Shown here piece after piece: positions 23,988 to 63,941 of a stretch of 64,000 nucleotides of DNA. Within the stretch, counting starts at the first letter, position 1. Each line of letters starts with the position of its first letter. This DNA comes from a virus: positions 64,001-128,000 of the IMG/VR virus record IMGVR_UViG_3300045988_127492, one strand, 5' to 3'. The notes below the pieces were generated by a model. The model saw nothing but the letters and a program-made list of their open reading frames with translations, searched no databases and was not told where the DNA came from. A program made the translations under genes and the position numbers.

Positions 23988-24383
23988 TATCCATCTCTCC
24001 CTTCTCCTTCAGCAACTTCTATATCAGCAAATCCATTTTCTTCCGTAATGGCATCAATCGCTTCATTCATAGAAAAATTATAATTATAATTAACATCACC
24101 CCACTCATCTTCATAGGCCTCATTGCTATCCATAATTACAATATATTCTCCATCAGGATGCTTTTCTAAAATGTCATCAACTCCATAAATTGTTGCTCCG
24201 CACCAGCTAGCCCCGAGACCACCACACCAATCTTTTTCATCATTTACGCCGGCAACATCTAATACATTAAGATTAAATTGATCAATTATCTTCTGAACTT
24301 TTTTCTTTGTCAGCGATTCTTGCAAAACAGATAATGAAACTGCTAGAGCTTGAATTAGTGACAAATCCTTTCCGTATTTTCAT
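23987..24383 (-). CDS. MKIRxGFVTNSSSSSF-family protein (copy 1), frame-disrupted at an A-run
   Basis: The ATG at 24383 (SD GGGAGG) encodes MKIRKGFVTNSSSSSFIICFARIADKEK... and stops at 24282. The 125-aa track ORF (TTG start at 24364) is the +1 frame of the same gene. The two frames join across GAAAAAAG. Confidence 0.5.
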
Positions 24384-27187: not shown

Positions 27188-28654
27188 TTAATGTTCTCCG
27201 TTTAATCTGTTTCTGATTTTTTCAAAACACTCATCATCATATGTTCCCCCATTAATGAACACTGTCCTTAATGCATCATCATATACAAGACTGTCATATC
27301 CATCTGCACACTGTAGTTCTCCATTTTCATCATAATAGATATAACAACATCCTTTATGAGATTTCTTTAAATGACTTGTATCAGTCTTCGGATCCTTATA
27401 AATCATGACTGGTTGTCCATTAACTTCTCCGAACGTAGCTTTCATAGCAATTCCAAACATATCTCTAGTTACAACGACCATACGTCCATCAGGTTCTACG
27501 ACCGCTGAAAAACAAAAAGCTCCCACACCAAAAACAATATTGTTCGCGGCGAATCCTTTCTTCTCAAGTTCCTCCCATACCTGCCTTACATTATTAAGAG
27601 TACAGCCATCTCCATAGATAATTCCAATATGAGGGTCCAGTACTTTATATCCTTTGCTATTCACTGATCCTTCAAATGTGTTCCAGAGTTTTTCAATTGT
27701 CTTTACTGAAATTTCTACCATATTTCCACTGTCCGGACGAACCAGAAGCTTACCGTTATGCTGCATAATTTCTTCTTTACAAGCTGGAAGAATGTTGTCA
27801 ATCATATTCCAGTAATCATATGTATCAGATACCATACTGAATGATGCATTAGGATAAAGCTCTGTAAGCAGTCTCTTCACAAATGTAATTTCATCTCCGT
27901 CTACGGCGAAGTTTGAAGCCATAACTGAGTGTTCTGTTGAGATTGCTCCAATTCCAATACCTTCTGTATAACAATCAGCATCGTAATATTTGTCCAAATA
28001 ATCAATTGCTGGGATTGTGCTGGTTTTATCGAATGATAATAACCATGCGGCAGAACATCTTTTAGCTTCTTCAATACAGGACATTCCTCTCATTCCAAAG
28101 TCAGAGCAAGCTAAATTGGGTTTTAAAGAGTCATCACAAGTCTTTTTGTAATAGAAATTAGCCAACTCTCTGTACATATGTCCGATTGTCGCATGAGCAC
28201 ATGGCTTCCAGAGTTCTACCTGCAGGATACATTCAATCCACTGTACAACCCATGCAAAGTCTGGATGTGTATTTGTGATCTCGATACACGGTACCCCCAT
28301 CGGAACCAGTGTTCCCTCCGGTAATGCGCGGATTTGAATTGGAAGATATCCTAATTCGTGGAGTTTAAGGATTGGAGAAATATCGTAATTTCTTTCCCCT
28401 AACTGGATATCCATACTATATGTATAGAGTTCCTGAATTTCGTCAGTATTCAACTTGAAAAAATCCCTTTTGAAATATTTAACAAGATACTCTTTAATAA
28501 AAGCCTGCAGTCCGAAGAAAACCATATGATCTTGCTCCTTTAACATTGATCTTCTCGGAGTCCAATAAGAGACTAACTTCGTAAGTCCCTTCGGATAGAT
28601 TTTATTATGGATTTGCTTATAAGTGTCACTTAATAAAATTGCAAGTGTATTCAT
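27188..28654 (-). CDS. NAMPT-family phosphoribosyltransferase (NadV-like; candidate Namat of NARP1)
   Basis: 488 aa. N-terminal LSDTYKQIH, YWTPR, and length and overall pattern of the nicotinamide phosphoribosyltransferase family. Confidence 0.75.
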   Translation of the reverse strand: MNTLAILLSDTYKQIHNKIYPKGLTKLVSYWTPRRSMLKEQDHMVFFGLQAFIKEYLVKYFKRDFFKLNTDEIQELYTYSMDIQLGERNYDISPILKLHELGYLPIQIRALPEGTLVPMGVPCIEITNTHPDFAWVVQWIECILQVELWKPCAHATIGHMYRELANFYYKKTCDDSLKPNLACSDFGMRGMSCIEEAKRCSAAWLLSFDKTSTIPAIDYLDKYYDADCYTEGIGIGAISTEHSVMASNFAVDGDEITFVKRLLTELYPNASFSMVSDTYDYWNMIDNILPACKEEIMQHNGKLLVRPDSGNMVEISVKTIEKLWNTFEGSVNSKGYKVLDPHIGIIYGDGCTLNNVRQVWEELEKKGFAANNIVFGVGAFCFSAVVEPDGRMVVVTRDMFGIAMKATFGEVNGQPVMIYKDPKTDTSHLKKSHKGCCYIYYDENGELQCADGYDSLVYDDALRTVFINGGTYDDECFEKIRNRLNGEH

Positions 28655-48645: not shown

Positions 48646-49419
48646 CTAACCCATATGGTTGCATGAATACTCTGCCATTTCACTTAACTTTTTAACTATA
48701 AAATCTGGTATATAACCACATTCAGAGCAGATACAAATCTTTCCTAAAATATACAAACATGCTTGATCCCTTGGAATTTCTTTTCCCATGAACTGTTGTT
48801 TAGTTTCTTGGCATTCACCTTCATAACAGTATTCGTTCTGTGGACAGCTATCACAGTCATATTCCAGAGCATTTTCAATCCAAGGAAAATACCAAGCTAA
48901 GATATCAGATTCAATCCCGTTGCCATTGTCACCTGTACATTCCGTTATTCCTGTACTGAAGTCCAAAGGGATATATGGATCATTAGAAGAAAAATCCCTT
49001 ATGTAAAAAGGTGCACATTTATTCATGCCTGACTGCTGCATTTTTTGAATCCAAAACTGTTTATACTCTTCATAGGATTCACACTCTGTCCAAGAAAGTT
49101 CTTCTGGACTTGGTAAATCATCATACCAAGTGGTTCCAAACATTGCTTCTAACTGTTTATTAATATTATCAGTGCATCTCCAGTCATACCCGTTTTGCTG
49201 ATGAATGCTCTTTCCTCTATTAGTATTAACAATTTCAAATACTGCCGGATAGTATTTCTCTACATAGTCATACATTTCTGAACAGGATTTATAATATTGT
49301 TTATAAAGTTTTCTCACTTCCTTATATACCGAATCAATAGTTACTGTGTTGTCGTTTGCCTTACCAATAATAAAACTTGAAGAACTACTATTGGTCACAA
49401 AACCATTACGAATCTTCAT
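48646..49419 (-). CDS. MKIRxGFVTNSSSSSF-family protein (copy 3) with Cys-rich C-terminal part
   Basis: Start at MKIRNGFVTNSSSSSFIIGK (ATG at 49419, SD GGAAGGGGTGG). Confidence 0.6.
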   Translation of the reverse strand: MKIRNGFVTNSSSSSFIIGKANDNTVTIDSVYKEVRKLYKQYYKSCSEMYDYVEKYYPAVFEIVNTNRGKSIHQQNGYDWRCTDNINKQLEAMFGTTWYDDLPSPEELSWTECESYEEYKQFWIQKMQQSGMNKCAPFYIRDFSSNDPYIPLDFSTGITECTGDNGNGIESDILAWYFPWIENALEYDCDSCPQNEYCYEGECQETKQQFMGKEIPRDQACLYILGKICICSECGYIPDFIVKKLSEMAEYSCNHMG

Positions 49420-49987
49420 TGGTACCACCCCTTCCTATATCATATGCTCTTTTACAGTAGACCCAATCATCACATAATGAACCTGCCATTTCTTTGTAGC
49501 ACCCTTTGCACAAGTGTTGTCTGTCTTCTACTATTTTATTAAATTGGTCATAGTCTACATAGAATTCTTTCCGGTAAGTTCCATCTTCATCTTTAACTTT
49601 TCCTATATAACCACCATTTGCCATATCATAAGCAGTTTGGTCTATATATGGATGTAAGAAATCATAAATATCCTGTCCCAGATCATCTCCATCATACATG
49701 TACCCCTTCATGCAGAAGTTTATAGAAAAGCACCAGCCCGTGTAGTTATCAGTAGGACTCTTATAGAAATCCAAATAATATGCTGGATATAGCAGTCTAT
49801 AATGATCTGCCCATTTAGATTCCTTAAATTCTTTACATAACAGTTTATCCCAAAAATCTTCTTCGGAGCATTTTTTTGTCAAAAGGCTCAGATCATGAAG
49901 CAAGTCTTCCGGAATATCTTTTTTTAGTCCGAATGCTAAATTCCCCTCATAATAATTCCCCACTTTTCCACATCCTTTCGAACACAT
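49406..49987 (-). CDS. hypothetical protein
   Basis: 193 aa. Confidence 0.5.
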   Translation of the reverse strand: MCSKGCGKVGNYYEGNLAFGLKKDIPEDLLHDLSLLTKKCSEEDFWDKLLCKEFKESKWADHYRLLYPAYYLDFYKSPTDNYTGWCFSINFCMKGYMYDGDDLGQDIYDFLHPYIDQTAYDMANGGYIGKVKDEDGTYRKEFYVDYDQFNKIVEDRQHLCKGCYKEMAGSLCDDWVYCKRAYDIGRGGTNEDS

Positions 49988-50276
49988 AAATAGAATTCTC
50001 TGTTTCTACTGTTACCTCAGTTACTTTTACTGTAATGCCTACTACACGACTTGTGTATAATACTAATCCTTCGAGAGAGGTTCCATCAGAATCACATACG
50101 TAGCTAATTATCATAGGAGCGTTCCCTGTAATTTTATTTACATCAAGGTCTACTATCCGTCCTATTCTTAATGGATAACGCCCATCCGTTCTTTTGATTC
50201 CTCTAATGCCACAACTGCCAGAATGTAATATTTCTTTTATTTTATATTGTGTATTCTTTTTTCGCAGTGTTTCCAT
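49947..50276 (-). CDS. hypothetical protein
   Basis: 109 aa. Confidence 0.45.
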   Translation of the reverse strand: METLRKKNTQYKIKEILHSGSCGIRGIKRTDGRYPLRIGRIVDLDVNKITGNAPMIISYVCDSDGTSLEGLVLYTSRVVGITVKVTEVTVETENSIYVFERMWKSGELL

Positions 50277-50285
50277 ATGGTCTCC

Positions 50286-50744
50286 TTAATGATGACTAAT
50301 AGTAGCAAGACAACATTTCATCTTTGGAACAACATAATGTTCAAGTTCTGAGTATTTAAGTCCATCATTGTCTGAATAACTGATTTCCACAAACACAGAG
50401 AGACCTTCCATTGCTTTTTCTAAATTAGACACTTTATTTGTAATTGCTTTATTAAGTTCTTTCTGAAATTCTTCTGTTTCTCGAACTTTAAATCTCTCGC
50501 TATAAGGGATATTTAAAGTATTTTCTACTTCCCATCTGGTATAATAACGAATTTCTTCTGTATATCCCCCCAGAACATCTTCTTTATCCAATCTTGTAGC
50601 TTCCGTTACATCTCTCAGAATCTCTTCAAAATACTCTTTAAGATTTTCTGCTTTCAGTTCTTCTTTGACGCTCTCTTCACTTTTAAAGCCAAGGATGAAG
50701 CTACTACTGCTACTGTTAGTTACAAATCCTTTTCTAATTTTCAT
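50286..50744 (-). CDS. MKIRxGFVTNSSSSSF-family protein (copy 4)
   Basis: Start at MKIRKGFVTNSSSSSFILG (ATGA overlap with the upstream copy, SD GGGAGGA). Confidence 0.6.
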   Translation of the reverse strand: MKIRKGFVTNSSSSSFILGFKSEESVKEELKAENLKEYFEEILRDVTEATRLDKEDVLGGYTEEIRYYTRWEVENTLNIPYSERFKVRETEEFQKELNKAITNKVSNLEKAMEGLSVFVEISYSDNDGLKYSELEHYVVPKMKCCLATISHH

Positions 50745-51025
50745 GACCAATCCTCCCATTCAACGTCTTCACCATCTACACCAATTAACCGTAAGAACTT
50801 ACTCATATTAAAATTGTCCATAATAGTAAAACCACGAATTGATTGATCCGTTTCAGTAATACTCCATCTGTCCCACTCATCATAATAAGAACTATCCATT
50901 TCTAATTCTTTTGCAACTTTAATATGATTTTTAATCTTTTCAATCTGATCAGCTGTTAAATTACTTTTTGCAATAGTAAAACTGGATGAAGAACTATTAG
51001 TTACAAAACCGGTTCTTAATTTCAT
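50741..51025 (-). CDS. MKIRxGFVTNSSSSSF-family protein (copy 5)
   Basis: 94 aa. MKLRTGFVTNSSSSSFTIAK. Confidence 0.6.
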   Translation of the reverse strand: MKLRTGFVTNSSSSSFTIAKSNLTADQIEKIKNHIKVAKELEMDSSYYDEWDRWSITETDQSIRGFTIMDNFNMSKFLRLIGVDGEDVEWEDWS

Positions 51026-51726: not shown

Positions 51727-51951
51727 TTAGTTCTCCTTTTCTCTTTTATTTAAAATTAATAATTTTAACGAATTTAGTGGTACCATAAAATACCTATTTA
51801 CAGGATGCTCATGTTCCAATACTGGATAGTATACGACACCCCAAGAACCCTTTAGGGACTCTTCTCCAGTTAAAGTAAATATTCTATTTTCCCATGAATC
51901 TATTAAAGTATCTTTCATAATCACTTGTAACCCTTTTTTATTCGGAACCAT
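51727..51951 (-). CDS. small protein with the GL..LI..R-type tail (distant YKVGD-family member)
   Basis: Start at MVPNKKG (51951). Ends ...YFMVPLNSLKLLILNKREKEN, like the tails at 59330-60586. Confidence 0.45.
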   Translation of the reverse strand: MVPNKKGLQVIMKDTLIDSWENRIFTLTGEESLKGSWGVVYYPVLEHEHPVNRYFMVPLNSLKLLILNKREKEN

Positions 51952-53162: not shown

Positions 53163-53602
53163 CTCGAATATAATTCAATTTCCATATGAATGTATTTTCC
53201 CATGTTACTATTTAAAATTTCTAACAGATCATGCCCTCCACATTTAAATTCTTCTTCAGTCCAAAGATATCCTGTGTAATCACTATACCGATGATAATAT
53301 TCAGATTCAGTGATACCTTCCATTGATACAATCTTTGTTTCGTCAATATGATCCATATCAATAGGAGTATCTCCTGTAAGCATTTGAATACTTGCATATC
53401 TGTCAAGCCACCCGCATCGACTTTCCATTTCTTTTGAAAAAGCAAATCCATTATTAGATACAACAATTTCTTCACCAGAAAATCTTTTTACTTTCTGAAT
53501 ATTTTGTATTCCAATAATGCTATCAGCAACATCTTCTGTGTTTACCCACCCTACTTTTCCATTGAGAATAATAGTGTCCTCTAATTTATACCCTTCTTTC
53601 AT
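53156..53602 (-). CDS. hypothetical protein
   Basis: 148 aa. Confidence 0.5.
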   Translation of the reverse strand: MKEGYKLEDTIILNGKVGWVNTEDVADSIIGIQNIQKVKRFSGEEIVVSNNGFAFSKEMESRCGWLDRYASIQMLTGDTPIDMDHIDETKIVSMEGITESEYYHRYSDYTGYLWTEEEFKCGGHDLLEILNSNMGKYIHMEIELYSRC

Positions 53603-53834
53603 GTCTATAATTCTCCTTTCTTTTCTCTATAGTATTCCTCAAATTGTGTTCTCCATATATAATAGAGTAATACTTCAAAGCTTCTAATAATGGAACCGGA
53701 TTTCCATCTAAGAAATATCCATAACCATTACCGCATTTGTGTTGAGGATTTATAAAACTTATTTGACAGATACTGCAGTACGGAGACTTACAACAGAATT
53801 CTCTTAACTTGAAATATATTTCATATCTATCCAT
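53586..53834 (-). CDS. Cys-rich small protein with RKENY-type tail
   Basis: 82 aa. CCKSPYCSIC...C; ends NLRNTIEKRKENYRHERRV. Confidence 0.5.
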   Translation of the reverse strand: MDRYEIYFKLREFCCKSPYCSICQISFINPQHKCGNGYGYFLDGNPVPLLEALKYYSIIYGEHNLRNTIEKRKENYRHERRV

Positions 53835-54117
53835 GTCTTCTCCTATAAATTAATGTGCTTAAAGGAAGTTCTAACATCTGGCTATTCCAACAATATCTTG
53901 CTTCTTTTATATGATAAAGCTTATTTTCATGTCCTTCAAATGCGCTATGTATCGTAACTTTTTGACCACATAGTTTTTTCATTTATTCATTGAAGCCACA
54001 GATGACAATTGGCATTCCATCCTCTTCCTGCGGCCGATATTCTTCTATTAAACGATCAAACGGTTTTACTTTATAGTGACCACCAATTTTAAGAACTTTA
54101 AGTTTACTTAGATTCAT
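53827..54117 (-). pseudogene. YKVGD-family paralog split by an in-frame TAA (44 + 51 codons)
   Basis: MNLSKLKVLKIGGHYKVKPF...ICGFNE-TAA-MKKLCGQKVTIHS...LSTLIYRRRHG. The stop (53983-53985) sits where the other copies have F(V/I)x(D/E)M(K/R)KYCG. An ATG follows the TAA directly. Confidence 0.45.
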
Positions 54118-54436
54118 TGTTTATCCTTTCATATAGTTTTCTAAACTTTACAAAATCTTCTTGTTTACCTCCATTGTCAGGATGAGCTTTAACCATTGCA
54201 TAATGAACAGCTTCTTCTATTTCTAAAGATGGTGTAATAATTTGGGGCTTTTTAAGTTTTATTGCAAGCCTTTTATTTTCTTCACATACACATATTATAT
54301 TGAAGCGTAAAGAGTCATTCTGTCTTTTTAATTTATCTACTTCCATTTTCAAATTTATGTTTCCACTTATACAAACAAACAAAATTATTAATGTTGCTAC
54401 CAATACAACACTCAACCCTACTATTTGTACTAACAT
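54104..54436 (-). CDS. membrane-anchored J-domain (DnaJ-like) protein
   Basis: Start at MLVQIVG (54436, SD GAGGAGAAAG). TM helix and coiled coil, then ...VHYAMVKAHPDNGGKQEDFVKFRKLYERI with the HPD tripeptide. Confidence 0.55.
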   Translation of the reverse strand: MLVQIVGLSVVLVATLIILFVCISGNINLKMEVDKLKRQNDSLRFNIICVCEENKRLAIKLKKPQIITPSLEIEEAVHYAMVKAHPDNGGKQEDFVKFRKLYERINNESK

Positions 54437-55494
54437 AAATCTTTCTCCTCTTTTGTACATAAGACGATTTCTCTTCTGATCGGACATCCACCTAAGCAAT
54501 CACACTGACGGCTACAGCCTCTACAAGAATTCCTGAAATGACTTCTGAAATCATCGAATACATCTGAATCCCATGCTTCCTGAATAGTGTGTTCATTAAG
54601 ATCAACTGCCCACTTAAGTTCCTGATTATCAAAGCTACATGGCAGCATTTTCATATCTGACGTAATGTAACCAGAAAATCTTGCTCCTTCACACGGTTCC
54701 AGAGTAGAATTTAAAATCTCTTCTGTAAAATTCAACAGTCCAGGCACAGAACATGAATCAAATCCAATCTGAAATTTATAATCATGTTTATCAATCAAAG
54801 AGAAAAATTCTTTGACTCTTTCATCATCAGGAGATAAGACATTTGCCTGAGTTCCTAAGCCTACTGGTTTATGTAGCAAGAAAATCACTGCATTAATACC
54901 ATCTGGAAAATCTTCACGCTGCAAATGTTCAATAGCTTCGTCAATAGAATTTCGACCAAGAACATAATGAATATTAGTAGTAACACCAGCAGCTACTAAC
55001 ATGTTAATTGCTTTTTCAGTATACTCACTTCTGTACCAAGAAATAGCTACAGCGCCACAATATCCTTTGCAAAGGGCTACGATTTCATCAGTAAATCCTA
55101 AACCTGAGCTTGTAAAATTTGGTACAATCCCTTGTGAACGACAGTATTTAAGAATTTCTTCAAAGTTCTCATGCTGATCCACATCGCCTCTACCTCCAAG
55201 AGCAAACTGGAATGTTTTTCCTTTACATTCATCTACTATTCTCTTGAAATTCTCAAGGGACATATTAGGCTCCTGTGTGTGTAATCCATTCTGATAACAC
55301 TGAACTCCTGACTGAATACACAAACCAGATGCCCCATGAACGCAATGTCCCATAACACCAATATCTAACAAAGCAGGAAAATTTCTCATAAATGGTTCCT
55401 TTCCTGTTGTCAAATCATCAGACCGGATATAGAACCCTGTCTTCGGATTAAATGTTTCTACAAAGTTATTTTTCTTGTCGTAATATCTATACAT
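54430..55494 (-). CDS. radical-SAM/SPASM-like Fe-S enzyme (non-canonical N-terminal Cys triad)
   Basis: 354 aa. C-terminal CRGCSRQCDCLGGC SPASM/twitch-type cluster motif, GGRGD in the place of GGEP, and an N-terminal C-x8-C-x6-C (HCVHGASGLCIQSGVQC) instead of CxxxCxxC. Confidence 0.5.
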   Translation of the reverse strand: MYRYYDKKNNFVETFNPKTGFYIRSDDLTTGKEPFMRNFPALLDIGVMGHCVHGASGLCIQSGVQCYQNGLHTQEPNMSLENFKRIVDECKGKTFQFALGGRGDVDQHENFEEILKYCRSQGIVPNFTSSGLGFTDEIVALCKGYCGAVAISWYRSEYTEKAINMLVAAGVTTNIHYVLGRNSIDEAIEHLQREDFPDGINAVIFLLHKPVGLGTQANVLSPDDERVKEFFSLIDKHDYKFQIGFDSCSVPGLLNFTEEILNSTLEPCEGARFSGYITSDMKMLPCSFDNQELKWAVDLNEHTIQEAWDSDVFDDFRSHFRNSCRGCSRQCDCLGGCPIRREIVLCTKEEKDLC

Positions 55495-55792
55495 TTTTTC
55501 TTCTCTCCTTAATCATAATTTCTAATTTCCCTGTGAATGGAATAAGCATTACTTCATCCCAAGAGAAATAAAGCAATTCTTTATCCTCATCCTCGTATCC
55601 TGTAATGGTTTCCAAATCATATATGTTATTAACTGGATCATATATTGCTTTAATTTTGTATATTTTCCCACAAAAGCATCGCATATCTGGGATAAAACTT
55701 GATGGTGTATTTATAGTTCCATCAGTGACACCATACTCCTTTGCCATCTGATCCCAAGACTTAACCCTTACTTTCTGTCCTACTTCATACAT
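55487..55792 (-). CDS. YKVGD-family small protein
   Basis: 101 aa. MYEVGQKVRVKSW...FIPDMRCFCGK...GKLEIMIKERRKNV. Confidence 0.55.
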   Translation of the reverse strand: MYEVGQKVRVKSWDQMAKEYGVTDGTINTPSSFIPDMRCFCGKIYKIKAIYDPVNNIYDLETITGYEDEDKELLYFSWDEVMLIPFTGKLEIMIKERRKNV

Positions 55793-56064
55793 TCTTGCCT
55801 CCTTGTGATTAACATTGATAAGTCTCCTTTTTCAAACATCTCACTTGTAAAAGTCCATGTATCTGCAGCATTCAAATAATAATAGATGTCATCAAATTTC
55901 TGTATAGCACGTATCCGCAACTTTTGGCCACAATATTTTTTCATTTCTCTTACAAAACCGCAATTGTTACATCGAATAACACCATAATAATTAACACCAA
56001 ATTCTTTAACCATATCATCCCATTGACGAATCTGAACTATGTCTCCTACTTTGTATTGCCTCAT
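55780..56064 (-). CDS. YKVGD-family small protein
   Basis: 94 aa. MRQYKVGDIVQIRQW...FVREMKKYCGQ...GDLSMLITRRQ. Confidence 0.55.
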   Translation of the reverse strand: MRQYKVGDIVQIRQWDDMVKEFGVNYYGVIRCNNCGFVREMKKYCGQKLRIRAIQKFDDIYYYLNAADTWTFTSEMFEKGDLSMLITRRQECMK

Positions 56065-56323
56065 GCAAACCTCCTATTGGCATAATCATGTCTGTAGACC
56101 ATGTGAACATTCTTCCATCTTCTTCAATATCGAAAAGATCTCTATCCCAGGGCAAAACATATTTGATTGTTACTATATTTCCACAATACTTACGCATATC
56201 TCTAACAAACGAAGCTTGACATGATATATATTCATTGTACGATCCAGCATGTCTTAATCCAAATTCTTTTTTCATACTTTCCCATGAACGTACTCTATAC
56301 TTTTGTCCTACTTTTACTTTCAT
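56015..56323 (-). CDS. YKVGD-family small protein
   Basis: 102 aa. MKVKVGQKYRVRSW...FVRDMRKYCGN...GGLHEAIQSRR. Overlaps the next copy by 50 nt. Confidence 0.55.
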   Translation of the reverse strand: MKVKVGQKYRVRSWESMKKEFGLRHAGSYNEYISCQASFVRDMRKYCGNIVTIKYVLPWDRDLFDIEEDGRMFTWSTDMIMPIGGLHEAIQSRRHSSDSSMG

Positions 56324-56600
56324 TTCTTACCTCAATTAAATTCATCAACCCAGGCTTAATAAGCATATTTTCAGTAAATAAATATTGCTCTCCAGTTTCT
56401 ATATTCTGCCCTTTATATACATGGTCTTTTTTATACCAATTATCCCTTGTAATTATGCGAATATTTTTCTCGCATAAAGGCTCCATTTCAAGTAAAAATA
56501 CTATTGGTCCAAAATCTAAACATCCAAGGAATTTGCCATTAGAAGCTTTTTTAAGTTCTTCCCATCTTTTTACACGGTATACTTCTCCTATTTTTATCAT
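56295..56600 (-). CDS. YKVGD-family small protein (divergent)
   Basis: 101 aa. MIKIGEVYRVKRW...PGLMNLIEVRNE. Confidence 0.5.
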   Translation of the reverse strand: MIKIGEVYRVKRWEELKKASNGKFLGCLDFGPIVFLLEMEPLCEKNIRIITRDNWYKKDHVYKGQNIETGEQYLFTENMLIKPGLMNLIEVRNESKSRTKV

Positions 56601-56608
56601 AATTTCAC

Positions 56609-57685
56609 CTACTCAATAAGCAGTACATCAACTGCATTTCTAAATTTCTTTAACAACTCCGGATTAGCACAAACAATTTTCTTTCTGGTTACTCTACTTT
56701 TTCCATGCTTGTTAATATATCTGGTTTCTAAATTATGCCAGTTGATAGAAGAATTCATTTCTTTCATCTTCTGATAAACTTTTCTATATGTAACCATGTT
56801 TCCATTGCTCTTATCTTTATATTTTTCTGCTAAAGGAATAATAATAGAATCAGTTGCATCCTGATTACAAACTGGTTTATACTTTTCGTAGAGATCTCCT
56901 AAAGCTGCACTAAAGATAGATCTAAGAGTATCATTTGCATAGACAACATCATAAGTGCTAAACTTACTTACCGGATTATGTTTTGCTTTGTAATCTTTTA
57001 CTTCCTGATCCCAACAGATACCATAGTTTTTATTCATATATTTATATACTGCACCCATAACTGAGCCACGGTCTGAAAATCTATCACATGTAGTAAGTGC
57101 ATCAATCATCTGGTACATATCATTTTTCCATTTCTTACAGGGGTCTTCTACCTTTTTCACTGGTAATGCGACAGCAGGAGCTTTTGATTCTAACAATACA
57201 GAAACTACTTTACCCATATCCGCATAAACTCTATCTACTTTTTCCTGTAGAATTTCAATCTGTTTACTAAAATCAGGCATCTGTAACTGAATGATATTAG
57301 AATTATCAACTTTCTTTTCTAAGAAAGCTGCTGCCAGTACATCTTTTGCTTTGAGCTGGTATGATACAAGCTTTTCAGTAATTCCTGGGGAATCTTTTTT
57401 CATTGCTGGAGTGATTGAAATTTTAGTTAGCCATAAAGGTAAGTAATCCAGTTGTAAACATAAAACATTTTGATTCCCACCATTTGTAAGGAGGGTAAAA
57501 TTTTGTACCCCCTTTGAAATTACTGAATCTGTTTGCATTTTTCTTCTTTCATATTTGATCCGGTTGTCGTCGAGTCCAATAGCCTCACACACCCAACGAG
57601 CACCGACCCAGACATTCCCTTCTGGATCCTGTGCCGCTCTAAGAATATCTCCCTGAAAATTTATTTCTTTAGCTACTAAATCCAT
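56609..57685 (-). CDS. phage antirepressor (P22 Ant/Bro-N-like N-terminal domain)
   Basis: 358 aa. INFQGDILRAAQDPEGNVWVGARWVCEAIGL resembles the AR N-terminal domain. Confidence 0.55.
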   Translation of the reverse strand: MDLVAKEINFQGDILRAAQDPEGNVWVGARWVCEAIGLDDNRIKYERRKMQTDSVISKGVQNFTLLTNGGNQNVLCLQLDYLPLWLTKISITPAMKKDSPGITEKLVSYQLKAKDVLAAAFLEKKVDNSNIIQLQMPDFSKQIEILQEKVDRVYADMGKVVSVLLESKAPAVALPVKKVEDPCKKWKNDMYQMIDALTTCDRFSDRGSVMGAVYKYMNKNYGICWDQEVKDYKAKHNPVSKFSTYDVVYANDTLRSIFSAALGDLYEKYKPVCNQDATDSIIIPLAEKYKDKSNGNMVTYRKVYQKMKEMNSSINWHNLETRYINKHGKSRVTRKKIVCANPELLKKFRNAVDVLLIE

Positions 57686-57687
57686 AA

Positions 57688-58230
57688 TTATTCTCCTTTT
57701 AACTTACTGATTGCTAATTTAATTGCTTCTTGTTCTTTTGGAGTTTTACAAACATTGTCATCGAGATAGCTTTGAAGCAACGCGACTGCTTTCTCGTCAG
57801 TCATTTCATTTAATTTATTTCTTACAATTTCCAGAAGCTTTTCTTCATTCCCTTTCCATTCATATGCTTTACATAAATTTCCGCTACAATGTACATTTGT
57901 GATTGATAAGGCACATGAAGAACAATTTTTATCGCCACACCCAGCAACATATTTAATCATGTCCTCAATAAACTCTCTGGCAGTCATTTCTTTCTCTTCT
58001 GACCGACTCTCATCAATAATTTCGGAAGCTGTATATAAATTATGATGATAACCGGTGGCAACTGTTCCATCACTACGAAAACGAAGTACATCTGGAAATT
58101 TCTGTCCTTCAAAAACTCTTAATTCTCCTCCTGTAACCCATTTGTATCCCTGTTTCCTTGCAATTTCAAAGAACTTTTCACATTCTTCTCTTGTATTTAC
58201 TCTTACATAAATATTTCTTAAATCAATCAT
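57688..58230 (-). CDS. MIDLR-family domain fused to a Cys-rich C-terminal domain
   Basis: 180 aa. MIDLRNIYVRVNTREECEKFFEIARKQGYKW aligns with 58647 and 58915. Confidence 0.5.
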   Translation of the reverse strand: MIDLRNIYVRVNTREECEKFFEIARKQGYKWVTGGELRVFEGQKFPDVLRFRSDGTVATGYHHNLYTASEIIDESRSEEKEMTAREFIEDMIKYVAGCGDKNCSSCALSITNVHCSGNLCKAYEWKGNEEKLLEIVRNKLNEMTDEKAVALLQSYLDDNVCKTPKEQEAIKLAISKLKGE

Positions 58231-58253
58231 ACTGTTTTATCTCCTCTTTATCA

Positions 58254-58628
58254 TTATTCAAGTACTGGTTTTAATGGACATGCTTCAGGAATTGTAGAGT
58301 GTTCTTTCTTTTTTAATATTTCGATATATTCATGTAATAAATTACAATAATATCCATTGATAAGTTTTGAAAATGGACATTCATTGCATGTATTCGGAGC
58401 GTTTATGATTATCATTTTCTTGTTTGTTTTCTCACCTTTTGATAATCGCACTAACAATCCCTGTTCTTCTAAGTCCTCATAATCGGCAAGTTTTTCAATA
58501 GCTTTTCCAACAGGACACGCCCAGCAACCTGAAAATGTATAATCATCACAGAAACATTTACAAGCTGTATCTCCGACTTCTGCCAAAAGAGTGTTTTCAT
58601 CTTCTATTCTCTTTGTTAATCTCTCCAT
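58254..58628 (-). CDS. Cys-rich hypothetical protein
   Basis: 124 aa. MERLTKR..., multiple Cys pairs. Confidence 0.5.
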   Translation of the reverse strand: MERLTKRIEDENTLLAEVGDTACKCFCDDYTFSGCWACPVGKAIEKLADYEDLEEQGLLVRLSKGEKTNKKMIIINAPNTCNECPFSKLINGYYCNLLHEYIEILKKKEHSTIPEACPLKPVLE

Positions 58629-58646
58629 CTACTTCACCTCAAAAAT

Positions 58647-58922
58647 TTACATCTCCGAAACATCTTCCCTTTTTAAAATCAAACCTCTTAATCCAAGTAT
58701 ATCTTTACACTGATAATCTCGTGGATAATATTGATAAGCCGTAGCATTATAATGTACACTATATTCTTCATCAAAACGCAATCTAGTCGGGAACCGACAA
58801 TAAACATGATCTAAAGAAACACTATTCGCCCAATAGAATCCTTGTCTCTTCGCTACTACAGCTATTGCCTTGTACTCAACTTCATTATTCACTAAAACAG
58901 TACATTTTCTTAAATCAATCAT
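58647..58922 (-). CDS. MIDLR-family small protein
   Basis: 91 aa. MIDLRKCTVLVNNEVEYKAIAVVAKRQGFYW...LRGLILKRED. Confidence 0.55.
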   Translation of the reverse strand: MIDLRKCTVLVNNEVEYKAIAVVAKRQGFYWANSVSLDHVYCRFPTRLRFDEEYSVHYNATAYQYYPRDYQCKDILGLRGLILKREDVSEM

Positions 58923-59196
58923 TAGTTCTTCCCTTTTGTCTAATTAAAATAAGTTTTCGTACACCTTTTATTAGAACCATACAGTTTGGATAGTCACGCG
59001 GCTGGCAACCTATCCATGCTCCATAATATGTACAATGATTTCTCTTAAATTCTAATCTAGTTGGGAATTCACACATAATATTATTTAAAGAACTTCCACT
59101 AGCCCATTCAAAGCCTTGCTTTATAGCCATTTTAGTTATAGCTCTGTACTCTTTTTCATTGTTAATCTTTACAGTACAATCTCTAAGGTCAATCAT
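58915..59196 (-). CDS. MIDLR-family small protein
   Basis: Start at MIDLRDCTVKINNEKEYRAI (ATG 59194-59196, ATGA overlap). Tail VRKLILIRQKGR. Confidence 0.55.
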   Translation of the reverse strand: MIDLRDCTVKINNEKEYRAITKMAIKQGFEWASGSSLNNIMCEFPTRLEFKRNHCTYYGAWIGCQPRDYPNCMVLIKGVRKLILIRQKGRTND

Positions 59197-59333
59197 TTCC
59201 ATCCCCATCCTTTCAAAGTAAGCATCTTTTTCAGGTTCTTACATTTAATGAAACTTGGTGTATATTCTTTTGTCTCTTCACAATATCCAAACCATTTACC
59301 TGATACATCCTTTTGAATAATATATACTTTCAT
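59193..59333 (-). CDS. small hypothetical protein (46 aa)
   Basis: MKVYIIQKDVSGKWFGYCEETKEY... ATGA overlaps at both ends. Confidence 0.4.
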   Translation of the reverse strand: MKVYIIQKDVSGKWFGYCEETKEYTPSFIKCKNLKKMLTLKGWGWK

Positions 59334-59623
59334 TGCTGATTCTCCTTCCTAAGTTTTATAATATTGTTTAATCCTGATGGAGAACGTAGCATAGCGTTGT
59401 TAAAGTACCATTCGATTCCATGTCCATCTATTTTTATGAAGTACTCATCTGCTGTACCATCCGTTATAGCAACAATCTTACCTAATTTTCCACGATATTT
59501 TGCCATAGAAGTATTAAAAAGCAATGTTTCATATCCACAAATTGGTTTATGTTCATATACATAAAGATTATTGATAATCAAATCCTCTCTAACAATTACC
59601 TTGTCTCCAATCTTATATCTCAT
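59330..59623 (-). CDS. YKVGD-family small protein
   Basis: 97 aa. MRYKIGDKVIVRED...MAKYRGK...SGLNNIIKLRKENQQ. Confidence 0.55.
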   Translation of the reverse strand: MRYKIGDKVIVREDLIINNLYVYEHKPICGYETLLFNTSMAKYRGKLGKIVAITDGTADEYFIKIDGHGIEWYFNNAMLRSPSGLNNIIKLRKENQQ

Positions 59624-59843
59624 AATTTTCCTTTCTGGCTTCTATCAGTCTACTTAGACTTCCTACCGGAATAAGTGATGATCTATACCAGCATCCATCT
59701 GGAACCCCAATTAGATTATAACCATTAAGACTCTTTCTACCAATCCTATAAACTTTTCCGAGATATTTTACCCCTATCTCACGAACTGCTAAGTTACGTT
59801 TTATACGAACCCAGTCTCCTACTTTATATTCTCTCTTCTGCAT
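59613..59843 (-). CDS. YKVGD-family small protein (short)
   Basis: 76 aa. MQKREYKVGDWVRIK...GSLSRLIEARKENYEI. Confidence 0.55.
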   Translation of the reverse strand: MQKREYKVGDWVRIKRNLAVREIGVKYLGKVYRIGRKSLNGYNLIGVPDGCWYRSSLIPVGSLSRLIEARKENYEI

Positions 59844-60103
59844 ATCAAACCTCCTAAGCTATTAGCTGGCAATAACATGGCATCGTTAAATACCCACATG
59901 TTTTGTTCTACTTCTAAAGATAATTCATAAAACTCTCCTTCATTATCAATTGAAGCTTTTGTTATTTTATATTCTCTCCCGCAAAATTTTTCCATTTGAT
60001 GAGCAAACCATAATTTTCTACTTGATGAATTTGAGTAGGGATATTCATTTCCTCCAATTAAATCTGTTCGAACTCTAACTCTATCCCCAACTTTATATCT
60101 CAT
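59819..60103 (-). CDS. YKVGD-family small protein
   Basis: 94 aa. MRYKVGDRVRVRTD...HQMEKFCGR...NSLGGLICRRENIK. Confidence 0.55.
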   Translation of the reverse strand: MRYKVGDRVRVRTDLIGGNEYPYSNSSSRKLWFAHQMEKFCGREYKITKASIDNEGEFYELSLEVEQNMWVFNDAMLLPANSLGGLICRRENIK

Positions 60104-60348
60104 GTTCGTTTTCTCCTCCTATCAATCAGTACAGTTAATCCTTTGTAAGGGATAAATTCGTCTGCTGGAAATACATAACCTCTAAGTTCTTCAAACATAT
60201 AAGCTTCAAACGTATAAGCTTCTATCCCAGAAGTTAAACTTTTAATTAATCTTATAGTATATATATTTCCTAACAACCGTTCTCTATGGATACCCCATAT
60301 CTTAAGAGGTGCATTAGTTTTAAGGATTACTTTGTCTCCTGGCCTCAT
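60100..60348 (-). CDS. YKVGD-family small protein (divergent)
   Basis: 82 aa. MRPGDKVILK...KGLTVLIDRRRKRT. Confidence 0.5.
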   Translation of the reverse strand: MRPGDKVILKTNAPLKIWGIHRERLLGNIYTIRLIKSLTSGIEAYTFEAYMFEELRGYVFPADEFIPYKGLTVLIDRRRKRT

Positions 60349-60562
60349 ATTGCCTCCTTTTGTGAATTGCAGAAGATAATGTGTCTTTTATAGGGATCAA
60401 CATATCTATATCAAATATATATTTTGATTCTTCCACTAAACAGGAACCATAGTCATATATACTTTGTATGGTCAAAATTCTTCTTTGTACGTCTTTCACA
60501 GGAATCCCAAATACAGTCCCAGATAATCTAGGATCAACTATCACTTTATCTCCAACCTTCAT
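60320..60562 (-). CDS. YKVGD-family small protein (divergent)
   Basis: Start at MKVGDKVIV (60562). Tail DTLSSAIHKRRQ. Confidence 0.5.
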   Translation of the reverse strand: MKVGDKVIVDPRLSGTVFGIPVKDVQRRILTIQSIYDYGSCLVEESKYIFDIDMLIPIKDTLSSAIHKRRQYEARRQSNP

Positions 60563-60563
60563 G

Positions 60564-60719
60564 TTATTTCTCCAGTATAAAATCAAGTACTTCTACAATA
60601 CTCATACCTGATATATCTAATAGTTTCATTTCCTTTGAAGCATACTGCACAATACAAATCCCGTCCTTGATTGTACAGCTTGTTATGCCTCTCTTTTTTA
60701 ATAACTTGTTCAGCTCCAT
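60564..60719 (-). CDS. small hypothetical protein (51 aa)
   Basis: MELNKLLKKRGITSCTIKDGICIVQY... First gene after a terminator; SD AAGGAG. Confidence 0.4.
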   Translation of the reverse strand: MELNKLLKKRGITSCTIKDGICIVQYASKEMKLLDISGMSIVEVLDFILEK

Positions 60720-60730
60720 GATGACTCCTT

Positions 60731-60763
60731 AAAATTCTCTTGGGGAGTCGAACCCCAAGAGAA
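60731..60763 (-). terminator. rho-independent terminator
   Basis: 11-bp stem TTCTCTTGGGG/CCCCAAGAGAA with a 7-nt loop, followed on the minus strand by TTTT. Directly downstream of 60785-61309. Confidence 0.75.
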
Positions 60764-60784: not shown

Positions 60785-61309
60785 TTACTCAGCATCCGGC
60801 AGATAGAACTTTTTAATTCTATCCTCACCAACAGCCTCTACAGCAGCCATTGCTACCTCATGAGAGCTGAAGTAAATACCGTCAGTGATTTTTCTTCTGC
60901 TCCATGTGGAGTCAACTTTCTCTGTCTCTCTGTTCCAGCAGAGTTTGTATTTTCTCTGAGAGTGATCGTCCCAATCAATCTCATCGTTGTGATCAATAGC
61001 GAAGCGTTTCAGCTCTGCTACAATCATCAGATACTCAGCAGCTGCATCTCTCTCCTCCTCAGTCTTGAAGCAGTTACCTACTGCAAGTCTCATTACATCT
61101 TTCTGGTTCTCTGTTGTGAATACTCCGCCGTCTTTCTTACCTGTACCCCACAGATAGAAGTACTGCTCGCCCTCTGTTGGCTCCCAATGTTTCTGTACTG
61201 TCTCTGGTGCATCAATCATTTCCTGAAATGCTCCGATGAGTTCTTTAAGCTCGTCCTGTCCAAGTGTTGCAAAAATTCTTGTAATAGTAGTAATGTTCAT
61301 CATAGTCAA
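60785..61309 (-). CDS. hypothetical protein in a G+C-richer, terminator-flanked cassette (moron-like)
   Basis: 174 aa. Composition visibly richer in G+C than the neighbours. SD AAGGAGA. The plus-strand 212-aa ORF over it is a shadow. Confidence 0.6.
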   Translation of the reverse strand: MTMMNITTITRIFATLGQDELKELIGAFQEMIDAPETVQKHWEPTEGEQYFYLWGTGKKDGGVFTTENQKDVMRLAVGNCFKTEEERDAAAEYLMIVAELKRFAIDHNDEIDWDDHSQRKYKLCWNRETEKVDSTWSRRKITDGIYFSSHEVAMAAVEAVGEDRIKKFYLPDAE

Positions 61310-61385
61310 ATTCTCCTTTTAATCCTTGTTTTCTTATTTTTTCTTATTTCTCTTTTTAAATCCTATATTCAGTTGTAATTTATAT

Positions 61386-61409
61386 GAAAACCTCTTAGTG
61401 GGCTAGAGG
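61386..61409 (-). terminator. rho-independent terminator
   Basis: Minus strand CCTCTAG-CCCA-CTAAGAGG (one bulge) followed by TTTTCAT. Downstream of the peptidase-like gene. Confidence 0.55.
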
Positions 61410-61441
61410 TCAATCATATACTTTGGCATATCCATTCCTCC

Positions 61442-62428
61442 TTACGCTGCTGATTTAATATCTATAATGTCACAAACAGAATAATACTGATAATGACTTA
61501 AAACGATACCAATTGCTTCCATTTCATTTACTGCAAGAACTTCACAACATATTTCTTCTTCCTTGTATCCTAGAAGATATACATGAAAGTATTTCTTAGC
61601 TGCTTTTTCATTTGAAAACATAAGGACACCAGAATCTGTATAAGCTGTTGTGTAATCTGTGCTAATAGGTGATGTCTCTTCTTCATCATCCCAGTCTTTC
61701 CACCAGTTTCCATATTTACCATAGCCATAAGCAGCTTCGATGTACTCAAAAGGCTCTTCACATGGTAAAGCAAGAATCTTTTTCGCTTCTTCAATCGTTG
61801 ATAAAAGAGCTTCTACATTGATGGTTTCTGTTATTGTGTGCTCATTAAAGTATCCAGATGAAAGATTCACTGCCGCTACTTGCAATACAGGAGCAATTAT
61901 TGAAATATCAGACACTGAACCCCATTCTGTTTTGAAATAACCAGTTGATTCAATAAACTCTTTAAAATCTGGGTTATCACAAGAGTAAAATACACAATCG
62001 TTTGTTCCTCTACGGTCAATTTCAATTATGTAATTTATATTATTGTTTACTACATAATCACTCTTTGCAAACTTCCCAGATCCTACACAACCAATCTCTT
62101 CATCTTCTGTAAATAATACAGAACAATGATAGTCCTTAATGATCTGTAAGATAGCGTAGATTCCACACCGGTCATCTCCCCCAATTCCTTGAGGGGAAGA
62201 CATAATTGCTCCGTTATATTTGATTTTCTGGACACATTCTTTATGTACTGTGTCCATATGAGCAACTAAGAGTACTGGGAAAGTTCCTTCTGCATAAAGG
62301 AAACCATCTTCTGACTTAGGCTCATAACCTGCTGCTTCCAATTTAGCTTCCAGATGTCTCTTGAGAGTCATCTGTTTCATTTTTAAGATTTCTTCAAATT
62401 CTACAATTCTGTATTTATTTTCATTCAT
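61442..62428 (-). CDS. M20/M28/M42-type metallopeptidase-like protein
   Basis: 328 aa. LLVAHMDTVH, GGDDRCG and FTEDEEIGCVGS (His/Asp/Glu-Glu metal ligand pattern). Confidence 0.5.
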   Translation of the reverse strand: MNENKYRIVEFEEILKMKQMTLKRHLEAKLEAAGYEPKSEDGFLYAEGTFPVLLVAHMDTVHKECVQKIKYNGAIMSSPQGIGGDDRCGIYAILQIIKDYHCSVLFTEDEEIGCVGSGKFAKSDYVVNNNINYIIEIDRRGTNDCVFYSCDNPDFKEFIESTGYFKTEWGSVSDISIIAPVLQVAAVNLSSGYFNEHTITETINVEALLSTIEEAKKILALPCEEPFEYIEAAYGYGKYGNWWKDWDDEEETSPISTDYTTAYTDSGVLMFSNEKAAKKYFHVYLLGYKEEEICCEVLAVNEMEAIGIVLSHYQYYSVCDIIDIKSAA

Positions 62429-63941
62429 CTCCGGTCTCCTTTTCTACACAATCTGGACAAAGTCCTTTATCATCGTCTCCGATTACATAGAGACTGCCGC
62501 ATTCTTTGCATTCTTTAACTTTTTCGTTAAAGAAATAGTCACCCTCACGTTCAACATATGTATAATTTTCCTCTAAACACTGACTACACACATTTTCATT
62601 AGTCGACTCTACATGAATAACATCTTCATCTCTTCGTAATCTTCCACAACAATCACATGTTGTGAATTCATTATCTTTACAATCATCACAGATATCCATA
62701 TCTAATTCACTATAATAATGAATATAATCGTTAGGGATTCTTTCATCACAGCAATCACAGAAAGTAGAACAATCACAACAGTACCATTGGTCGTCAATAA
62801 GATACATATCATCTTCATCATAACGACAGCCGCATCTATGACATCTTCGTGTTCCATCGGATCCGTCATAGCAATCTTCACAAAGAAGTGTTGATTCATT
62901 ATCATGCCAATCGCCGCATTTTACACAATAGATATCATGTCCTACAGTCATTTTTCTATTGTCAACTCTTCCCTTGGGAATCATTTTGACGATTCTACTT
63001 ACTGAACACTCATTCTGATAGCTATAATCTCTATAATGAGTTCCCTCAGAATGAATAACTCCGCAGCAAGCTTCTGTTCCACCTTTCTTTCTCCAAAGAT
63101 TAGGTGCTACTAAGCAGTCAGCAATAATCTTCTGAAGCTGTGCTCTGATTGGTGTATACAGTGAGTTCTGACCATCATTACACTGAGGATACAGTCTTCC
63201 CTGTATGAGGATTCCATCCTTATAATGAAACATCTGACGAATGATCTTAGGCTCAAACTCTAAGTCATTTCCGTCATATTCTTTGTCTACCTGATAATAA
63301 ACCATTGTAGTTCCATCAAGCAGATAACTCATGGTACCGGAACAATGGCATCCTGAATATCCATTAGGATTATTCTTATCAAGTGTGTGGCAAGAAGACC
63401 AGCTGTTTCCGTTGCTTGATAATAAATAATCAACTGGATTAACTGACAGAATCGTATGTCTGACCTGATCCAGTGGATTGATTGCATCAGAATACTTTGC
63501 GTATTCTTTTTCATAACCACTTCTTTTGTCTATTCCTAAGAGCTTACAAATCTTATTTACTGCTCTTGAAGTTTTCTGTCCTGCTGCGATTCCTTTGATT
63601 TCTGGATAGGACTTTTTAATTCTTTCTGCCATATCCTCAGTTAAAAGCTGTTCTTTATAATATTTCAAACAATCAAGGGCATCTGTATAACCGCTCACAT
63701 CTATCACTCTATCAAGAAACCGATAAATTTTATTTTCATCAACTTTTCCTTTGACATTCTGATCAAATGCTACATAACATTTCTCTTCATTCCAATTCGG
63801 ATGATGTCTTAACAACTCAATCAGAGGAGCTTTGCCCTCTGCCCAGATGTCAATAATTTTATTAATTGCACTGGTACCCCAAGGGATATCATACATATTA
63901 AGAACTTTAATCATACCCTGTTTCATTGTTTCCTTATTCAT
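62421..63941 (-). CDS. large hypothetical protein with multi-zinc-ribbon C-terminus
   Basis: 506 aa. At least 8 CxxC pairs in the last ~170 aa. Confidence 0.55.
   Translation of the reverse strand: MNKETMKQGMIKVLNMYDIPWGTSAINKIIDIWAEGKAPLIELLRHHPNWNEEKCYVAFDQNVKGKVDENKIYRFLDRVIDVSGYTDALDCLKYYKEQLLTEDMAERIKKSYPEIKGIAAGQKTSRAVNKICKLLGIDKRSGYEKEYAKYSDAINPLDQVRHTILSVNPVDYLLSSNGNSWSSCHTLDKNNPNGYSGCHCSGTMSYLLDGTTMVYYQVDKEYDGNDLEFEPKIIRQMFHYKDGILIQGRLYPQCNDGQNSLYTPIRAQLQKIIADCLVAPNLWRKKGGTEACCGVIHSEGTHYRDYSYQNECSVSRIVKMIPKGRVDNRKMTVGHDIYCVKCGDWHDNESTLLCEDCYDGSDGTRRCHRCGCRYDEDDMYLIDDQWYCCDCSTFCDCCDERIPNDYIHYYSELDMDICDDCKDNEFTTCDCCGRLRRDEDVIHVESTNENVCSQCLEENYTYVEREGDYFFNEKVKECKECGSLYVIGDDDKGLCPDCVEKETGDE

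Follow-up and report, generated by a model that had tools for sequence, protein, structure and literature searches.

A hypervariable island of small phage genes with unrelated heads and a common C-terminal tail, a candidate docking peptide

Introduction

The organisation of the blocks of small and fast-evolving genes found in large phages is poorly understood. One such block lies on the minus strand, between 51.7 and 60.6 kb, of a 64,000-nucleotide (nt) stretch of viral DNA (positions 64,001 to 128,000 of the IMG/VR record IMGVR_UViG_3300045988_127492), the whole of which is referred to below as the window. A total of 14 small genes of this island, with heads belonging to three N-terminal families (A, B and C), end in one and the same short C-terminal tail, [G/S]L..LI..R[R/K]. 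The interpretation favoured here, which is held with about as much confidence as doubt, is that of a hypervariable accessory-gene island with amplified SH3-like genes, in which the shared tail acts as a docking or targeting peptide to a common partner.

According to this interpretation, the founder of the island would have been a single Mind-bomb-repeat/SH3-like gene, placed between a conserved gene of 172/174 amino acids (aa) and the gene of a radical S-adenosylmethionine (rSAM) enzyme. The founder may have been amplified to 11 copies, with two further small domain families and an antirepressor inserted among them later. The tail would be a short peptide joining many fast-diversifying binding domains to one lineage-specific partner, probably other than the rSAM enzyme, and the island as a whole would be a collection of adaptors or effectors in which the heads can be exchanged and the plug is always the same.

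Conservation of the C-terminal tail

In the 14 small proteins the tail takes the form of a C-terminal helix of about 10 residues with the pattern hydrophobic-x-x-hydrophobic-hydrophobic-x-x-R-[R/K]. When a strict pattern (L..[LIMV][IL]..[RK][RKQE] within the last 26 aa) was applied to the 102 minus-strand genes, nine of them matched, all inside 51.7-60.6 kb, while the background at internal positions amounted to two matches per 17,315 aa. The enrichment is far above chance, and this count bears out an earlier reading of the same DNA (the original prediction), in which about 14 tandem small genes with a common C-terminal tail had been described.

The same arrangement is found in about 30 close relatives (31 loci), which made up the comparison set of this work: in the relatives as in the window, three unrelated heads carry one tail. 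The orthologs of the Cys-rich family C protein end in NLRALIVRRRG, as expected from the claim that the window protein has the same kind of tail, which proved right. Of 65 family B homologs, which come for the most part from this phage group, nearly all have the ending (G)(L/V)R.LI(L/M).RKE. Furthermore, variation within one set of family A orthologs is found in the loops, whereas N-terminus, MKKYCG core and tail are constant.

The genes are translationally coupled, and the basic end of the tail coincides with a translation signal. As had been proposed, the Shine-Dalgarno (SD) sequence of the next gene, AGGAGG or AAGGAG, sits in the codons of the tail's RR or RKE. In the genes starting at 60103 and 56323 the SD is GGAGGT within the 'GGL' codons, so that the remaining tail codons are shared, in another frame, with the next gene. 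In the family B gene 58922-58647 the tail is retained although it holds no SD: the next gene starts 18 nt after the stop codon and has its SD beyond that stop.

A codon survey of 104 distinct tail segments showed that the Leu at the first tail position is encoded by TTA, TTG, CTA or CTT, the Leu at the fourth by TTG, TTA, CTT, CTC or CTA, and the Ile at the fifth by ATA, ATT or ATC. Such a variety of Leu and Ile codons at conserved positions means that the constraint acts on the protein; the claim that the GL..LI segment is kept at the protein and not at the nucleotide level therefore holds.

In the AlphaFold2 (AF2) models of families A and B the tail is a terminal helix of lower confidence than the domain, as would be expected of a free peptide. 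The mean hydrophobic moment of the tails is 0.21, as compared with 0.28 for the proteome background, which speaks against a classic amphipathic membrane helix.

Folds of the heads

The suggestion that structure prediction might place the small proteins among SH3-like folds was confirmed at the level of models for family A. The AF2 model of the gene at 55780-56064 (mean predicted local distance difference test score, pLDDT, of 89) consists of an SH3-like barrel (residues 1-78) and a tail helix (residues 82-93, pLDDT ~70). The best matches in the PDB, as found by Foldseek, are the MZM-REP structures of Mind bomb 1 (4xi6, 4xi7 and 4tse; probability 0.96-1.0, E=9e-3, TM score 0.49-0.52), YorP of the B. 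subtilis prophage SPbeta (2HEQ) is a further neighbour, and among the BFVD matches are entries with the name 'Mind bomb SH3 repeat domain'. At the profile level, PHROG 7488 is matched with E=1.5e-10 to 3e-6, and Pfam SH3_15 is reached with 17.5 bits (E=0.005), which is below the gathering score of 24. Family A is thus predicted to be a Mind-bomb-repeat/SH3-like barrel.

This domain is widespread. A profile search of 1.84 billion representatives gave 5,721 clusters, many of them with 2-8 tandem domains per polypeptide, and the matches usually end at about profile position 80, ahead of the tail. Among those of the best 150 representatives that have a single domain and at most 135 aa, the tail was found only in the ones resembling the proteins of this phage group. 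The tail is therefore an add-on module.

The family B model (58647-58922, pLDDT 80) shows an alpha/beta domain followed by a low-confidence terminal tail helix, and a fold search against the PDB gave no significant neighbour. Three family B members had been described; all three share the B domain, but the 180-aa copy at 57688 has no tail, so that the tailed members are two.

Variability of the island

The island evolves quickly within conserved surroundings. Across the 31 close loci the rSAM enzyme has a median identity of 95.8%, and the neighbouring 174-aa, 148-aa and 88-aa proteins are 94-95% identical, as against 40-79% for the family A genes and about 55% for family B. The ratio of nonsynonymous to synonymous substitution rates (dN/dS) is 0.39-0.47 for two A genes, in comparison with 0.05 for the rSAM gene and 0.05-0.13 for the conserved neighbours. 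The copy number of the array also varies among relatives, and single-sample variants include in-frame chimeras of a B head with an A body and tail, as well as adjacent cassettes fused into one, with the tail turned into a linker (P0060, P0102, P0001 and P0020). All these features support the proposal of a diversifying cassette array. Moreover, the 124-aa Cys-rich cassette (58254-58628) has no homolog in any of the close-relative loci and appears to be a window-specific insertion.

As regards the mechanism of diversification, the cassette junctions showed only weak matches (62-80%) reflecting the protein N-termini, and no inverted repeats. Neither junction repeats nor a recombinase, as in an integron-like or site-specific cassette array, were found in the island, and no long imperfect repeat paired with the array, as in a diversity-generating retroelement, was present in the 64-kb window, where reverse transcriptase was not searched for.

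Tails and arrays in other lineages

More distant lineages provide an argument for a shared docking function. The tails of the window follow L..(L/A)I..RR; in lineage L053 six copies end in SI.YYL.RR, with varied Ser and Leu codons, and in L045 and L055 the tails read S(L/I)EYLI.K. The domain bodies, on the other hand, often match best across lineages: the family A protein starting at 56323 scores 66-68 bits against L053 and L045 copies and at most 51 bits against its window paralogs, and the short-subtype protein starting at 60562 pairs with L053_160. The tails thus seem to change together within each lineage, and they do so even where the paralog subtypes carrying them appear to predate the divergence of the lineages. 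Such concerted, lineage-specific tails favour a shared docking peptide for a common partner.

A more distant relative, MT835544 (NAMPT and other genes shared at 40-50% identity), carries its own version of the arrangement. In MT835544.1 (L051/L052; human gut) at least 12 tandem SH3-like genes lie on the minus strand at ~9.5-15.5 and 1.9-2.4 kb, all of which end in (N/D)EC.C.SLL*, with the SD outside the gene. A conserved C-terminal peptide on an SH3-like domain therefore recurs independently of SD coding. This array also contains a tyrosine-recombinase-like open reading frame (ORF) and a 690-aa DUF8224 protein.

The probable starting point of the window array can be recognised in L045/L047, whose rSAM enzyme is 70% identical. 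Here the gene order is a 515-aa Cys-rich protein, an M28 peptidase, a 172-aa protein, one family A gene, the rSAM gene and a membrane protein with an HPD motif; because these flanks are the same as those of the window, the window array seems to have arisen by expansion at this very site. The gene most closely related to the L045 family A gene in L055 retains the 172-aa upstream neighbour, but it is followed by a DUF8224 gene in place of the rSAM gene. DUF8224, an array neighbour in L055 and MT835544, is absent from the window and its close relatives.

A more specific form of the docking interpretation is put forward tentatively, as possible though rather doubtful: the tail could be a phage 'address label' that co-evolves with its receptor and leads into one machine, for which the virion and the membrane-anchored HPD protein together with DnaK of the host are candidates. 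Such co-evolution would yield the variants L..LI..RR of the window, SI.YYL.RR of L053 and EC.C.SLL of MT835544.

Several observations weigh against the docking interpretation. The last 3-5 tail residues are bound by the SD and by the overlap with the next gene, and the chimeras, in which a B head is joined to an A body with its tail, show that the tail can be passed on by recombination even in the absence of selection for it. Furthermore, some of the similarity of tails within a genome could be due to simple descent if the expansions are partly lineage-specific, the dN/dS of the heads is raised but below 1, and the tail helices are modelled with only moderate or low pLDDT.

Alternative explanations

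The first alternative, considered unlikely, is that of a functionless tail, which would be the terminal helix of family A kept by descent, moved to families B and C by junction recombination and with its basic end set by the SD. In keeping with it, most copies have SD codons within the tail, B-head/A-tail chimeras and fused cassettes occur in frame, most of the wider domain family is devoid of the tail, and the pLDDT of the tail is low. However, the hydrophobic positions are kept with synonymous or conservative changes over deep paralogs and three folds, and the tail persists in 58922-58647, where no SD is needed. Moreover, lineage-specific variants are common to paralog subtypes that appear older than the split of the lineages, in the MT835544 array a tail of another type is conserved without being SD-coded, and no nucleotide repeats were found at the junctions.

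The second alternative, which is a special case of the docking model and is judged improbable, is that the tail marks the small proteins as clients of host DnaK (Hsp70), their recruitment being due to the membrane-anchored HPD protein encoded beside the tailed genes. The binding sites of DnaK, according to its established specificity, have a Leu/Ile core with basic flanks, to which the tail can be likened. The KAHPDNGG segment of the HPD protein aligns to residues 20-52 of E. coli DnaJ (39% identity, E=0.001 in a single comparison), the motif and its flanking helices corresponding to helices II-III. Nevertheless, Pfam DnaJ gave no match at E<=0.1, only ~35 residues are J-like, and helices I and IV are missing. 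The membrane J-domain gene of the original prediction is thus upheld as regards its transmembrane helix and its helix II-HPD-helix III segment, but not as a complete J-domain. Every close relative, as well as the L045 lineage, has the HPD protein beside tailed genes, and it is absent from every rSAM-bearing lineage without the tail; yet the two lineages in which HPD protein and tail co-occur are relatives with shared synteny, so that co-inheritance by shared descent explains the pattern equally well. In addition, neither an HPD protein nor an rSAM enzyme was found in the incomplete 35-kb fragment MT835544, whose array has another tail.

The third alternative, a highly improbable one, takes the tail for a virion packaging signal (cargo loading, co-injection) or for a membrane-targeting helix. 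A short conserved C-terminal peptide on diverse cargo-like heads would suit such a role, and there is a loose resemblance to encapsulin cargo-loading peptides. The hydrophobic moment of the tail, below that of the proteome background, speaks against membrane targeting, and the island is situated among small non-structural genes, behind a terminator-like hairpin. Finally, recognition or crosslinking of the tail by the adjacent rSAM/SPASM enzyme, or its inverse, in which SH3-like adaptors dock on the enzyme by their tails, is likewise highly improbable, because the enzyme travels with a different gene family.

The rSAM/SPASM enzyme and its companions

The enzyme at 54430-55494 had been described as radical-SAM/SPASM-like. 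Its SPASM part stands: PF13186 is matched with 24.5 bits (cut-off 21.5), and the Cys set C324-X2-C327-X5-C333-X3-C337, together with C248, C268, C286 and C346, is conserved. The N-terminal motif, in contrast, is the non-canonical C51-X7-C59-X6-C66-Y, invariant in nine homologs down to 64% identity, instead of the canonical CX3CX2C; the homolog in phage KP15 has CX7CX2C. No match to Pfam Radical_SAM was obtained at E<=0.1, the NCBIfam matches to several maturases are partial and far below their cut-offs, and the best hit of phmmer against the PDB sequences was BtrN with E ~0.4. Homologs of the phrog_7293 family occur in 172 GenBank phage records, mostly of Slopekvirus-like T4 phages, annotated as 'hypothetical' or 'radical SAM'.

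SPASM enzymes typically act on peptides or proteins. A role of this enzyme as the partner of the tail could be suspected from the four family A genes that overlap in series into its gene, and from the single tailed family A gene of L045, which overlaps the rSAM start by 4 nt. The wider distribution of the enzyme does not agree with this role. No family A gene was found within 8 kb of 12 rSAM loci at 64-69% identity; at eight further loci (38-67%), found by means of the gene family described below, neither a convincing family A gene nor the tail or an HPD protein was present; and in KP15-like T4 phages, where the homolog has 27% identity, the neighbours are unrelated and belong neither to family A nor to that other family. 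Half of the tailed genes are 4-5 kb away from the enzyme, and the closest relative of the L045 family A gene precedes DUF8224 in L055. Thus, no conserved co-occurrence of array and enzyme was found across the lineages, and the proposal that the tail is a docking or recognition peptide for the Fe-S enzyme is not supported.

The Cys of the KYCG motif, which had been suggested as a thioether or crosslink site, fares no better. It is absent from four to five of the 11 window copies (those starting at 60562, 60348, 59843, 59623 and 51951), its position is occupied by A, R, G or V in the MT835544 array, and in the wider domain family it is common irrespective of any rSAM enzyme. Co-occurrence by lineage and a conserved acceptor Cys, as expected of the precursor and maturase of a ribosomally synthesised and post-translationally modified peptide, are both absent in the case of the tailed proteins. 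Taken together, the comparisons make the rSAM enzyme an unlikely partner of the tail.

The conserved neighbours of the enzyme are a family of paralogs with the N-terminal motif FVTNSSSSSF. Each rSAM locus with a downstream flank has 1-7 same-strand paralogs starting with MK(I/V)R.(D/G)FVTNSSSSS(F/Y), and the family was found downstream of the rSAM gene in every lineage examined (L001-L042, L084-L101), down to 38% identity, in 1-8 often adjacent copies. The association was also obtained in the opposite direction, as FVTNSSSSSF loci were found independently by an alignment-based scan and rSAM homologs were then retrieved just upstream. The remainders of these proteins are variable (90-260 aa), and the motif is kept at the protein level, since AGY as well as TCN codons are used for its five Ser. 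No Pfam domain or functional name appeared among the 120 listed of 444 homologs, phrog_7397, a family of unknown function, being the only assignment, and there was no match in GenBank phages. Because they are present at rSAM loci in which family A and the tail are absent, these proteins are the enzyme's conserved companions and would be the best candidates for its substrates or partners.

In the window, three FVTNSSSSSF paralogs follow the island (Table 1); a gene at 50276-49947 and an ORF at 49987-49406, which lie between them, are not members of the family. A fourth copy is situated at 23987-23604 on the minus strand. Beside it, a frameshifted paralog is found at 24383-23987: its reading frame is interrupted after 33 codons, and the remainder is read in a different frame (ORF 23987-24364).

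Organisation of the island and genomic context

The features of the island are collected in Table 1; every gene named in the original prediction was found where it had been placed, on the minus strand. Family A has 11 members in the window, one of which is a nonsense pseudogene: the copy reported as split is real and owes its state to a single CAA>TAA change at 53983-53985, a position occupied by Gln in all 30 relatives. It is either a very recent pseudogene or a sequencing error. The assignment of the antirepressor-like protein rests on PF10547 (69 bits, cut-off 30.7) and phrog_524 (E=2e-21).

Table 1. Features of the island and of its flanks, in the order of transcription
Position	Strand	Feature	C-terminal tail	Remarks
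60735..60763	minus	Terminator-like hairpin		11-bp stem, then TTTT; 3' of the 174-aa gene, before the first island gene
60564..60719	minus	51-aa ORF	none	First after the hairpin; no family match
60320..60562	minus	Family A, short subtype	DTLSSAIHKRR	80 aa from ATG at 60562; SD of next gene in KRR
60100..60348	minus	Family A, 82 aa	KGLTVLIDRRRK
59819..60103	minus	Family A, 94 aa	SLGGLICRREN	SD of next gene is GGAGGT of 'GGL'
59613..59843	minus	Family A, 76 aa	GSLSRLIEARKEN
59330..59623	minus	Family A, 97 aa	SGLNNIIKLRKEN	phrog_7488, E=1.5e-10
59193..59333	minus	46-aa ORF	NLKKMLTLKG	End loosely tail-like; doubtful member
58915..59208	minus	Family B (MIDLR...), 93-97 aa	GVRKLILIRQKG
58647..58922	minus	Family B, 91 aa	GLRGLILKRED	Next start 18 nt past stop
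58254..58628	minus	Cys-rich cassette, 124 aa	none
57688..58230	minus	Family B N-domain fused to a different C-terminal region, 180 aa	none
56609..57685	minus	Antirepressor-like protein		P22_AR_N domain; within array
56295..56600	minus	Family A, 101 aa	PGLMNLIEVRNE
56015..56323	minus	Family A, 102 aa	GGLHEAIQSRR	Next SD in 'GGL'; 50-nt out-of-frame overlap
55780..56064	minus	Family A, 94 aa	GDLSMLITRRQ
55487..55792	minus	Family A, 101 aa	GKLEIMIKERRK	Overlaps rSAM start by 8 nt
54430..55494	minus	Radical-SAM-like/SPASM enzyme, 354 aa		phrog_7293; array neighbour
54104..54436	minus	Membrane protein, one transmembrane helix		C-terminal helix-HPD-helix; ATG overlaps rSAM stop
53827..54117	minus	Family A copy with one in-frame TAA	LSTLIYRRRH
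53586..53834	minus	Family C, Cys-rich, 82 aa	NLRNTIEKRKEN
51727..51951	minus	Divergent family A-like, 74 aa	SLKLLILNKREKEN	From ATG at 51951
48646..51025	minus	Three paralogs MK(I/L)R.GFVTNSSSSSF		51025-50741, 50744-50286, 49419-48646

The strong hairpin at 60735-60763 (TTCTCTTGGGG-TTCGACT-CCCCAAGAGAA) is terminator-like and marks the upstream edge of the array transcription unit. It was also considered as a tRNA, as its loop resembles that of a T-arm, yet ARAGORN calls none there. The promoter and terminator scan gave counts at the level of shuffled sequence, this hairpin alone being useful, and an Rfam scan of 50-62 kb gave no match. Upstream of the array site a trio of genes is conserved in L045, in L055 and in the window (60785-63941): a protein of ~510 aa with many CxxC pairs, an M28-family peptidase and the 172-174-aa protein. 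Of these, the 172-aa gene has kept its place upstream of the founding family A gene, also where another gene is found instead of the rSAM gene.

The window has a GC content of 34%, and almost every long ORF lies on the minus strand. It encodes Pol III alpha (PHP), DnaB, NAD-dependent ligase and RNA ligase, as well as NAMPT, NAD synthase, a P-type ATPase and four tRNAs. The full-length P-type cation ATPase (E1-E2 type, 875 aa), the NAD synthase and the NAMPT-like genes, at 19458-22085, 24585-25730 and 27188-28654, are unusual auxiliary metabolic cargo. The source is a large gut phage, whose close relatives are IMG/VR contigs, most of ~85-160 kb. A megablast of the array region against GenBank phages gave zero matches, and thus no near relative; tblastn of family A against the same phages matched one record. 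Nothing on these proteins was found in the literature: no paper combined the Mind bomb SH3 domain with phages, and none of the 15 titles listed for SPASM in phages was relevant.

Significance

The island suggests a modular design for such gene blocks, in which variable heads, with host or defence targets as their probable ligands, are set on a common plug. If the docking interpretation is true, the tail offers a handle to fish out its partner, and the motif could flag effector genes in metagenomic phages; if the tail is in addition an address label, it would represent a new targeting system for phage effector proteins. As for the rSAM/SPASM enzyme, the interest shifts to the MK(I/V)R..FVTNSSSSSF proteins as better candidates for substrates or partners.

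Comparison with known systems

The tail may be compared with the cargo-loading peptides of encapsulins and with the capsid-targeting sequence of T4, the likeness being that of a short terminal label on otherwise unrelated proteins, an analogy of function on which the docking interpretation draws. The sequence of the tail matches neither consensus, and the T4 capsid-targeting signal is N-terminal and cleaved.

The neighbouring enzyme resembles rSAM/SPASM maturases (anSME, PqqE, MftC and the sactipeptide synthases) in its SPASM CX2CX5CX3C motif and upstream Cys; it differs from them by CX7CX6C, and its constant neighbours are FVTNSSSSSF proteins and not the tailed array. The HPD protein, in turn, recalls phage and membrane J-domain proteins (DjlA-type, and Rki of phage RB43), with which it has in common an HPD between helices II and III and a membrane anchor, but it differs in having ~35 J-like residues and no Pfam DnaJ match.

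The island as a whole is similar to the hyperplastic or accessory regions of large phages, which are likewise blocks of small genes with a fast turnover of content and sequence and with recombinant chimeras. The difference lies in the common C-terminal motif over three folds, changing in concert by lineage, which is not known to have been described for such regions. Finally, the heads of family A share an SH3-like barrel with Mind bomb, SH3_15, YorP and PHROG 7488, and the wider family is often tandem, as in Mind bomb. However, the repeats of Mind bomb are found in one polypeptide, whereas those of the island are separate, translationally coupled genes; and, while most members of the SH3_15/Mind-bomb family have no tail, each window copy carries an extra C-terminal one.

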